A stretch of DNA of 64,000 bases from Gemmatimonadota bacterium (GCA_963666735.1 OY762926.1:3360001-3424000), one strand, 5' to 3'; shown: positions 54,691 through 57,117, numbered from the stretch's first letter. Made by a program: numbers and translations. Notes: generated by a model not told the origin, from the letters alone.

Positions 54691-57117
54691 ATGGAAGCAC
54701 GTAGTTCCGGCACCTCGGTACCCCTGAGCGGGCGGGTGGTCGAACCATCCATCGCGAACGCGCTCCCGCACTTCGTTCCGCTCGCGATCTTCCCGCTCGT
54801 GGTCTGCGCCGCCATGTACGGCGGCTGGTGGATCGTGGGTCCTCTCGTCTTCTTCATGCTCGCAGGCCAGTTCGACAGGGCCTTCGGGCTGGAGGAGCGG
54901 AACATGGATCCGGCCACCACCCGCGAGAGCCAGCTGTTCCCGTACAAGCTCTCGCTGTGGCTGTGGGCGGCGTTCTGGCCGGTGACGTTTGTATTCTCGC
55001 TCTGGCAGATGCTGGCCGCCGGCCACCTCTCGCTCTGGGAAGTCGGGTTGATGGCCGCCGTGCTCACGACCGTGGCGCAGACGGTCTTCATCGTGGGCCA
55101 CGAACTGGTCCATCGGCGTGCGCTCTGGGAGCGCCGGCTCGGCGAGTTCCTGCTGGCTTCCGTCTCCTACCCGCATTATGCGACCGAGCACGTTTACATC
55201 CATCACCCCCGCGTATGTACGCCGCTCGACCCCGGTTCCGCACCGAAGGGAGTGAGCTTCTGGCAGTACCTGCCCGCGGAGGTGGCGAATAATCTGCTGG
55301 GCGCCTGGCGGTTCGAACGCCGCCGGCTGACGCGCCGCCACCTGCCGCTCTGGCACTACACGAACGCGTTCTGGCGCTACGCCGTGGAAATCGCCGTGTG
55401 GTACGGGCTGATCTTCCGGCTGGGCGGTCCGTGGGCCGCGCTGCTATACCTCCTTCTGTGCGGCAGCGTGGTCTTCTCGATGAAGATCAGCAACTACGTG
55501 CAGCATTACGGGCTTCGGCGCATCCGGATGCCCACCGGCAGGTTCGAGCCGGTCAAGCCGAGGCACGCCTGGAGCGCTGCCTACAAGTTCACCAACTGGC
55601 TTTACTACAACATGCAGCGCCACGCCGACCATCACACGTCAAACCGGCGCTATCCGCTGCTGCAGCATCATGGTGAGGCCGCCTCGCCGCAGCTGCCGGG
55701 CAGTTACATGCAGATGAACGGCCTGGCCCTCTTCCCCAAGCCGTGGTTCGAGACGATCGATCCCCTGCTCGATCGTCAGCGCGCCCAGTTCTATTCCGAG
55801 ATCGACGACTGGAGCGCGTACGACAGCCGCGCGTTCGCGGAGCGCCCCGACGCGTTCGACGTCATCGCCGAGATCCACGCCGCCGCCCCGCGCCTGGCGG
55901 GGTGGATAAACCGCTGGCCGCGACTGCTCGACACGCTGCGGGAGCGGGAATTCACGGACCTGGAACTGCCGGAGGGATTCCTGTCGGATCCGGAATCCGA
56001 GTCGATCGCCCGCTCCGGGTTGGCGCGCCTCTACTGGACGCACGAACTCAGCGTCTCCGAGATGAAGGACCAGCTCGCCGACATCCCCGTGCAGGACGCC
56101 GGCGAGGCGGTCGAGGCGGCGCTGGAGTGGTCGAATGCCAAGGTCTTCCAGGTCGCCGTGCACACGATGCGTCGCAGCCTGTCGGTGAGCGAGGCCGGCA
56201 TGGCGCTGTCGCGCATCGCCGAAGCTTCCATCGCCACCGTGCTGTCGGCCGTTGAGGAAGACTTCGCCGACCGGGGTGTGCCACACACCAGCGGTGGGGT
56301 GGCGGTGGCGGTTCTCGGGCCTCTGGCCGGCGGACAGGCGATGCCGGGGACGGAACTCGATGTCCGGTTTGTTTACGACGGCGGCCCCGCCAGGTACTAC
56401 GAAGCACTGTGCCGCCGCTTCCGCAAGGCGCTCCGTGCGCTGTCGCGCGACAACCTGCTGCTGGTGCCGGTCCCGCGCGGTGGCATCGGCGAGCTCAGTG
56501 CTCTCGATGCGTTCCGGGAACGGCTCCGGAACTCCGATTCGAGCGACGAGCTTGTGGCGCTCGCACGGGCGCGTTGTGTGTTCGTGTCGGGCGATGGCGA
56601 AATTGCGGATCGGTTCACGACGGCGTTACGAGACGCTCTGGGAGGGAGCACAGCTCGCGAGGCGCTGACGGTCGAGTTGCGCGAAGCCGCCGCGAGCGAA
56701 GTTGAGCTGGACCTGCTCTCGGTCGCCGACATGCCCGGCGGACTCCGGGATCTCGAGCGCGCCGCTCTGGCCCTGCAATGGGCGCCCGGCAGCGACGCGT
56801 CGGACACGCTGAACGGCGACCCGGCCTCGGTCTTCCGGGCTGCGGGCAGCCGCGGGCTGATCGCCGAAGATGCCGCGGAGCGGCTGGCGGAGGCGGCGAC
56901 ACTGTGGCGGAACCTGCACGGTTCGCTGCGGCTCATCGCCGACGACGGATTCACCGTCGACGCGGCGACCTCCACCGCAAAGACCGCGATCGCCGATGCG
57001 TGCGGAGTGGACGACTTCGAGACGCTCGCCGCGACGATCCGCGATACCGCATCCCGGGTCGCCGCCGGTCTCGACGCGCTCGTACACGAACCGCACCGTC
57101 CAGCCGACCGGCCGTAG
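54691..57117 (+). CDS. AlkB-type membrane di-iron monooxygenase/desaturase fused to a degenerate GlnE adenylyltransferase-like domain
   Basis: His boxes HELVH, EHVYIHH, NYVQHYGL, MQRHADHH and PQLPGSY; from about 55850 GlnE-like APRLAGWI, LSRIAEA, VAVLGPLAGG..PGTELDVRFVYD, ALARAR, PGGLRDLE. Confidence 0.85.
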   Translation: MEARSSGTSVPLSGRVVEPSIANALPHFVPLAIFPLVVCAAMYGGWWIVGPLVFFMLAGQFDRAFGLEERNMDPATTRESQLFPYKLSLWLWAAFWPVTFVFSLWQMLAAGHLSLWEVGLMAAVLTTVAQTVFIVGHELVHRRALWERRLGEFLLASVSYPHYATEHVYIHHPRVCTPLDPGSAPKGVSFWQYLPAEVANNLLGAWRFERRRLTRRHLPLWHYTNAFWRYAVEIAVWYGLIFRLGGPWAALLYLLLCGSVVFSMKISNYVQHYGLRRIRMPTGRFEPVKPRHAWSAAYKFTNWLYYNMQRHADHHTSNRRYPLLQHHGEAASPQLPGSYMQMNGLALFPKPWFETIDPLLDRQRAQFYSEIDDWSAYDSRAFAERPDAFDVIAEIHAAAPRLAGWINRWPRLLDTLREREFTDLELPEGFLSDPESESIARSGLARLYWTHELSVSEMKDQLADIPVQDAGEAVEAALEWSNAKVFQVAVHTMRRSLSVSEAGMALSRIAEASIATVLSAVEEDFADRGVPHTSGGVAVAVLGPLAGGQAMPGTELDVRFVYDGGPARYYEALCRRFRKALRALSRDNLLLVPVPRGGIGELSALDAFRERLRNSDSSDELVALARARCVFVSGDGEIADRFTTALRDALGGSTAREALTVELREAAASEVELDLLSVADMPGGLRDLERAALALQWAPGSDASDTLNGDPASVFRAAGSRGLIAEDAAERLAEAATLWRNLHGSLRLIADDGFTVDAATSTAKTAIADACGVDDFETLAATIRDTASRVAAGLDALVHEPHRPADRP

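Follow-up and report, generated by a model that had tools for sequence, protein, structure and literature searches.

A pseudo-GlnE tail on an AlkB-type oxygenase encoded beside a srp-type peptide cluster

Why should a membrane-bound di-iron oxygenase end in what looks like half of a GlnE adenylyltransferase? The question is raised by one gene in a 64,000-nucleotide stretch of a Gemmatimonadota genome (GCA_963666735.1 OY762926.1:3360001-3424000, hereafter "the window", from whose first letter positions are counted unless a contig or locus is named); the genome, G000, is one contig and 94% complete. An earlier note on the window had described the product as an AlkB-type enzyme fused to a pseudo-catalytic GlnE domain, which might couple the enzyme to nitrogen status or serve as a scaffold. 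The answer that we prefer is tentative, quite possible though short of probable: this would be an AlkB-type di-iron oxygenase of a srp-type cluster, hydroxylating a greasy (probably isoprenoid) group on a peptide and carrying a GlnE-derived, non-catalytic, cytoplasmic "docking" tail. (The name srp reportedly goes back to Nguyen et al. 2021, said to be the original paper, and stands for a sponge-derived proteusin, that is, a peptide made by the ribosome and modified after translation, or RiPP.) Two firmer statements, both read from sequence, lie underneath: the tail is a GlnE derivative without catalytic motifs and under purifying selection, and the fusion gene flanks a srp-type thiazoline-peptide cluster.

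The fusion protein

The features of the gene are listed below, with the occurrence of motifs among 81 family members and, by region, the ratio of nonsynonymous to synonymous substitution rates (dN/dS; 30 disjoint pairs unless noted, Nei-Gojobori with Jukes-Cantor correction, rough values in so GC-rich a genome).

54691..57117, +, AlkB-type oxygenase with pseudo-GlnE tail (P0001), 808 residues, no internal stop
54748..55785, +, AlkB-type membrane di-iron domain, residues ~20-365; dN/dS 0.11
55099..55113, +, histidine box 1, HELVH (H137, H141); both His in 81/81
55189..55206, +, histidine box 2, HVYIHH (H167, H171, H172); 81/81
55492..55512, +, HYG motif, NYVQHYG (H272; Q271 corresponds to FtAlkB E281); Gln in 81/81
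55618..55635, +, histidine box 3, RHADHH (H311, H314, H315); 80/81, with one gap
55828..55953, +, end of the GlnE central-region helices, residues ~380-421; dN/dS 0.10 for residues 366-421
55954..56055, +, residues 422-455, the stretch with the 28-residue insert common to a GlnE paralogue and RND fusions; dN/dS 0.10 (interval 0.07-0.12)
56056..56280, +, N-terminal helices of the adenylyltransferase domain, residues 456-530; dN/dS 0.15
56281..56610, +, degenerate nucleotidyltransferase core, residues 531-640, with GPLAGGQAMPGTELD at 56317-56361; dN/dS 0.33 (26 pairs)
56611..57075, +, C-terminal helical domain, residues 641-795, lacking in many relatives; dN/dS 0.38 (21 pairs)

Pfam places FA_desaturase at residues 115-321 of the 808-residue reading frame (E 1e-20) and, both above cut-off, GlnE (456-638, E 2e-8) and GlnD_UR_UTase (682-791) on its tail. 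A profile built from 30 fusions finds its best solved relatives in FtAlkB (8f6t, E 2e-83; 8sbb, E 3e-68) and matches E. coli GlnE in its adenylylation domain (3k7d) at E 9e-27. Aligned by hhalign with 19 ordinary GlnEs, residues 380-806 match at probability 100; the GlnE part thus begins near residue 380 and takes in the end of the central region.

The AlkB half is intact in its metal site, as the earlier note had said: the nine iron-ligand histidines (H137, H141, H167, H171, H172, H272, H311, H314 and H315) are complete in 80 of the 81 members, and nine iron-binding histidines are described for FtAlkB in the sections of PMC10110569 on which we draw. The same note had singled out NYVQHYG in place of NYxEHYG. 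The Gln is real and invariant, yet it is not peculiar to the fusion: 8 of the 20 unfused AlkB-like proteins of the tree set share it, so that it is no bar to AlkB kinship. The substrate pocket has changed as well. Leu274, Leu315 and Leu318, which position the substrate in FtAlkB according to those sections of PMC10110569, are replaced by Met in 78/81, Phe or Tyr in 80/81 and Met in 71/81 sequences (here M264, Y305 and M308), which suggests a substrate unlike a straight alkane. To set the protein beside FtAlkB and the AlkB-AlkG fusion (8sbb, 8f6t; PMC10110569, in part): the nine-histidine di-iron set, the HYG motif and the hydrophobic membrane segments are shared; E281 has become Gln, the three leucines M/Y/M, the C-terminal partner is a 430-residue pseudo-GlnE and not rubredoxin, and the fusion is encoded in a peptide cluster.

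The tail has gone further. It reads GPLAGGQAMPGTELD where ordinary GlnE has G-x11-D-x-D, and it has neither D-x-R-L-R-P nor W-x-W-E. Both Asp of the first motif are kept together in one of 81 sequences; the third-Asp motif is found in 0/30 AlkB tails and in 0/8 tails of the same kind on RND permeases, as against 22/23 ordinary GlnEs. A GlnE homology that has lost its catalytic motifs (EVDxRLRP-type and WE included) in an uninterrupted frame had been noticed before, and the reading stands. One GlnE half only is represented: the NCBIfam GlnE equivalog model scores 82 bits against a cut-off of 724. The tail is nevertheless collinear with E. coli GlnE (3k7d; PMC12409994, in the parts consulted), starting where the central region ends, across the catalytic core and on to the C-terminal helical domain; what distinguishes it is the missing N-terminal adenylyl-removing half, the three lost catalytic motifs, the 28-residue insert and the membrane enzyme as partner. 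No CxxC was found in the tail, which is therefore no rubredoxin substitute.

Assembly artefact and chance fusion are ruled out: in three other runs (three studies) there are contigs that cross the AlkB/tail junction, with 0, 0 and 15 differences, and the architecture, which the earlier note knew from one assembly, is wide. From the 595 relatives that a GTDB scan matched, the best 80 were retained (a choice that favours full fusions). The tail is present in all 80, which come from Gemmatimonadota, Acidobacteriota, Alpha- and Gammaproteobacteria, Nitrospirales and Binatia; several record titles name sponges, and runs are labelled sponge metagenome. A protein search with the tail as query (8000 scored, 648 proteins returned) found both Pfam families in 115 of 120 and the closest named relatives in Ca. 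Palauibacter (94-97% identity), both among the matches listed. Within the window's genus 14 of 36 genomes carry the fusion, a patchy distribution; elsewhere in the order it was met in 0/25. Twelve short matches were inspected as unfused subfamily members, and the close ones appeared cut off or frameshifted; full-length unfused AlkBs appear only from about 39% identity down (1576 candidates scored). A plasmid search gave two weak, unannotated matches.

Is the tail then a dead appendage, decaying neutrally? That is ruled out, since every regional dN/dS has a bootstrap interval below 0.45; the purifying selection for which the earlier note had proposed to look is there, at 0.10 to 0.38 over the GlnE part. 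Selection acts, by these regional ratios, chiefly on the start of the tail (residues 366-530). Farther on, the match of the reading frame stops before residue 700 in 16 of the 80 loci, 13 of these at residues 630-700, and in one more it leaves its contig.

(Three further observations on the gene. About 4.6 kb of other, insertion-sequence-like genes split it within the tail at one locus, L130 of genome G106. No promoter or terminator consensus was found in 54400-54800. Contigs of a relative in an RNA-labelled run cover the gene, which is no proof of transcription.)

Origin of the tail

Directly before the adenylyltransferase helices lies the 28-residue insert, aligned in all 30 AlkB tails, 8 RND tails and 9 full-length GlnEs and absent from 23 of 23 ordinary GlnEs. 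The stretch that holds it is the best-conserved part of the tail (dN/dS 0.10). In one RND fusion (L112) it has decayed, and so is not always needed. A profile of the insert only, run on 5 genomes, matched nothing besides the GlnE paralogue, the RND fusions and the AlkB fusions, and in one class it matched 8 of 401 genomes. Within these searches, three tail contexts and so few genomes rule out a selfish repeat scattered over many proteins.

The RND connection emerged from a profile-free search, in which 7 of the 40 proteins scanned carry the tail on an RND permease; the tail on full-length GlnEs was returned as well. Three of the RND-tail genes, in two gammaproteobacterial genomes, could be placed, each behind a membrane-fusion protein gene. 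They encode RND permeases of ~1525 residues with a pseudo-GlnE tail (P0168 and P0187 are proteins of this kind):

L112:1750-6321
L113:9629-14224
L114:7915-12489

No srp genes lie in the 16-20 kb fetched around these three, and no RND-tail locus came out of a metagenome scan. A tail serving as srp-specific leader-binding domain is disfavoured by these loci and by the paralogue loci, which also lack srp genes.

The insert-bearing full-length GlnE was met in 7 of 50 carrier genomes, all alphaproteobacterial; in 5 of the 7 there is a further, separate GlnE, whose length and context are ordinary. Its N-terminal catalytic motif is kept in 7/7 loci, its C-terminal motif in 3; in the other 4 (L116, L117, L119, L120) the latter is partly lost, so that the decay set in ahead of the fusions or independently of them. 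(On neighbourhoods: the insert-bearing full-length genes, at L115-L121 and L143-L145, alphaproteobacterial, often stand beside an ordinary GlnE; three copies lie upstream of partner-switch genes with STAS, two of these also with receiver-SpoIIE and anti-sigma kinase genes; two adjoin an ammonium transporter and a glutamate-cysteine ligase-like gene.)

In a tree of the tails (insert columns removed, 50 of 70 rows; FastTree on all 70 agrees) the tails of the paralogue, of the RND permeases and of the AlkB enzymes make up a single clade (SH-aLRT 99), a grouping to be read with caution, since dead domains that evolve fast may be drawn together. Those of the RND and AlkB proteins join (98), with the paralogues L116 and L119 as sister (97). 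In the tree of AlkB domains, from which six more tailed rows were left out when the cut-out pattern did not match, all 33 tailed enzymes are one clade (99) apart from the 20 unfused ones. Its deep branches often retain Glu281 and Leu274 (FtAlkB numbering); L128, L141, L142, L146, P0141, P0172 and P0181 are deeper-branching AlkB-tail proteins, several of them with the canonical Glu. Alignment and tree together point to a separate, insert-bearing GlnE paralogue as the source of the tail. The order of events would have been: the paralogue with its insert; its dead tail on AlkB and RND proteins; and one of the AlkB lineages joining the srp cluster, along with the pocket changes M264, Y/F305 and M308.

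The srp-type cluster

The gene's downstream neighbours run off the end of the window, 2-6 kb past which sits the core of the cluster. In order:

57139..60342, +, RND (AcrB-family) permease, no tail
60387..63329, -, NHLP-type peptide export ATP-binding cassette (ABC) transporter 2, TIGR03797-like, below cut-off
63317..64000, -, 3' end of NHLP peptidase/ABC transporter 1, TIGR03796-like
G000:C1:3425547-3425876, HlyD-type secretion gene, a 109-residue stub, also a stub in some relatives
G000:C1:3425935-3426222, NHLP-leader precursor with core LCCCG, TIGR03793 above cut-off
beyond the window, after the precursor, a 374-residue prenyltransferase-like gene
beyond the window, E1-YcaO cyclodehydratase, 785 residues, TIGR03604 and TIGR03882 above cut-off
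beyond the window, after YcaO, a flavin adenine dinucleotide (FAD) oxidase

The cluster family is already published. In the prototype the SrpE core LCCCW is cyclised to thiazolines by SrpC (PMC10858898, in part), and further accounts exist (PMC9426513, PMC12615548, likewise in part); the portions of these three papers drawn on here describe thiazoline formation and bromination as the only steps and give no role to an AlkB fusion. The present cluster resembles it in the NHLP-leader precursor with a triple-Cys core, the SrpC-like E1-YcaO cyclodehydratase, the NHLP exporters, and the occurrence across many phyla of sponge-associated bacteria. It differs in that its core ends in Gly, without the C-terminal Trp, and in that no counterpart of the SrpI brominase, nor any other halogenase gene, was seen in the cluster of the window genome. 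Among related loci halogenase is variable: 22 of 80 have a Trp halogenase. Related precursor cores are short and hydrophobic (LCCCW 27 times, LCCCG 6 times). (P0309 is a hybrid reading frame, with an AlkB-domain N-terminal half and a precursor C-terminal half ending in LCCCW, probably a deletion product.)

How tight is the association? In 71 of the 80 loci one or more srp markers are found no farther than 10 kb from the fusion; of the 9 loci without, 4 are short or cut and 5 (L038, L053, L061, L072, L078) are full length. YcaO is immediately downstream of the fusion in 32/80 loci, the 374-residue gene occurs in 49/80, and a prenyltransferase-like or terpene-cyclase-like gene in 59/80. A leader-fused cyclase-like gene is found at 35 loci (e.g., L031:906-2207, 433 residues, with an NHLP-leader-like start and a squalene-hopene-cyclase-like end); no copy was seen in the window genome's cluster. 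An RND gene is within 10 kb of the fusion at 12 of 80 loci. In the window's genus, close YcaO homologues (at least 64% identity) occur in the same 14 genomes as the fusion, distant ones (37-39%) in two others, and the 374-residue gene in 13 of the 14 carriers as against 0 of 22 other genomes. The 374-residue protein has no Pfam match and no match to a PDB sequence.

Literature searches on an alkane monooxygenase-GlnE fusion, AlkB fusions, proteusin prenyltransferases and RiPPs with AlkB found no paper on this fusion; the original srp paper and its supplement lie outside that search and may list the gene. A term search of PMC10469786 gave no mention of alkB, desaturase or glnE, and the supplements of PMC10858898 no match for srp terms.

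(Upstream of the fusion, 48637-54583 holds genes for a pyrroloquinoline quinone (PQQ)-type dehydrogenase, an acyltransferase-3 and a choice-of-anchor B protein; the latter two stand beside the fusion at just 5 and 7 of the 80 loci, which makes this a genus-specific insertion site. Small genes at 45342-45803 and 48222-48518 (-) resemble, as judged by eye, HigA-type and Phd/YefM-type antitoxins.)

What the oxygenase and its tail may do

The preferred reading can be laid out as a sequence of steps: 1) YcaO would convert the three Cys of the LCCCG core to thiazolines, as published for srp; 2) the 374-residue protein is predicted, on a weak likeness, to attach a prenyl chain; 3) at the membrane, oxidation of the prenyl chain would fall to the AlkB domain; 4) cleavage and export of the product would be the work of the ABC and RND transporters. 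Electrons for step 3 probably come from a general cellular donor, which we propose because no donor gene is encoded nearby: the earlier note saw none in the window, and this holds, there being 8 Fer2 matches elsewhere in the genome, none of them inside the window, while rubredoxin (PF00301) was not found anywhere in the genome. The region around the insert would bind a partner protein rather than ATP, PII or glutamine synthetase; a binding function is proposed because it is on the helices surrounding the insert that selection is focused. A scaffold role for the tail, the other half of the earlier suggestion, is plausible.

Several things weigh against this reading. Since the carriers are related to one another and the genes travel as one unit, the co-occurrence figures establish linkage, not a common substrate; genes of a mobile cluster would keep company whether or not they act on one molecule. 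Five full-length loci of the 80 carry the fusion and no srp core gene within 10 kb, and those deep fusions whose loci are visible (L128, L129, L141, L142, which equals L140, and L146) lie outside srp clusters; the enzyme can, then, exist without the peptide. The ESM look-alikes of the 374-residue protein that bear names are aromatic prenyltransferase families (score 0.88-0.90, a lead only). No rubredoxin motif was found in the 80 related loci, and no electron donor is linked to the fusion. Both the GlnE paralogue and tailed RND permeases are absent from the window genome.

What else might the protein be doing? Some of the alternatives overlap. The AlkB domain might oxidise a free lipid, a terpenoid or a host-derived hydrocarbon, as accessory to the srp pathway or as maker of a precursor. 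Stand-alone copies within the srp-linked clade and deeper, some with the canonical Glu and Leu, fit this, as does the small-hydrocarbon diet of known AlkBs (PMC10110569, in part); the tight linkage (YcaO in 14/14 carriers, and the 374-residue gene likewise concentrated in carriers), with YcaO so often directly downstream, makes us regard it as unlikely. To let the enzyme act on the lipid group or the peptide as a desaturase or acetylenase, and not as a hydroxylase, is to give weight to the Glu-to-Gln change next to the iron site and to the altered pocket, in a superfamily that includes desaturases (PMC10110569, same sections); this is improbable, given that the only solved relatives found are AlkB hydroxylases and that the same Gln occurs in unfused proteins annotated as alkane 1-monooxygenase. 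The tail, for its part, may have no partner, its first 150 residues being a structural cap for folding at the cytoplasmic face and the rest slowly decaying, an idea that fits either substrate. It would account for a constraint that falls with distance from the junction, for the early ends (most at residues 630-700) and for catalytic decay already under way inside the GlnE paralogue. The insert's conservation in three unrelated settings (soluble full GlnE, RND, AlkB) and a distal dN/dS still well below 1 are harder to square with it, and we hold it unlikely, yet deserving of serious attention.

The proposal that the tail senses nitrogen, through PII, glutamine synthetase or glutamine, and so regulates the oxygenase is quite improbable. 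It has in its favour descent from GlnE, with part of the central regulatory region kept (PMC12409994, in the parts consulted), PII in 20/20 carriers of other phyla, and two paralogue loci (L120, L143) and a deep fusion (L142) beside ammonium transporter, PII or glutamine synthetase genes. In the window organism the coupling through PII and glutamine synthetase that had been proposed is not supported. Neither PII nor another GlnE, ordinary ones included, was found in the 94% complete genome; PII is found in 0/13 same-genus and 0/2 Longimicrobiales carriers (0/16 for Gemmatimonadota carriers). The sole glutamine synthetase reads NVWQL, with Trp at the adenylylation-site position where an adenylylated enzyme carries Tyr; in this too the window cell differs from the setting of a GlnE adenylyltransferase. 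PII/glutamine synthetase coupling cannot, on these grounds, be the conserved role in this lineage, though the tail might yet sense a small molecule directly. Besides, the half of the tail expected to hold ATP and glutamine synthetase is its most relaxed part and the one shortened in 16 of 80 loci, and its best-conserved part is an insert that ordinary GlnE lacks. Very improbable indeed is a tail that is still an active nucleotidyltransferase with a rewired site, working, for example, on the peptide: an acidic residue at 557 (63/81), Glu at 555 (37/81), G543 (75/81) and R628 (76/81) are what it can point to, against the near-complete loss of the Asp pair, the missing third-Asp motif and a core that is relaxed and sometimes truncated.

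One can go further than the hydroxylated peptide that we prefer. Sponge symbionts might possess a second GlnE with a 28-residue binding insert, whose C-terminal half became a portable docking or sensing module without catalysis, placed at least on AlkB and RND proteins under one undescribed signal, with the AlkB fusion acting on a ribosomal peptide product and completing a lipo-thiazoline metabolite common to sponge microbiomes; taken whole, this is unlikely, if well worth keeping in mind. The srp cluster is common to unrelated sponge symbionts, and an AlkB-type oxygenase beside a prenyltransferase-like gene makes a testable prediction of further srp tailoring steps and of the product's mass. 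One pseudoenzyme module of GlnE descent, borne by two unrelated membrane proteins, would be a clean case of a signalling enzyme turned portable domain; a living paralogue shows catalysis being lost by degrees, and the 28-residue insert offers a precise target for mutagenesis.

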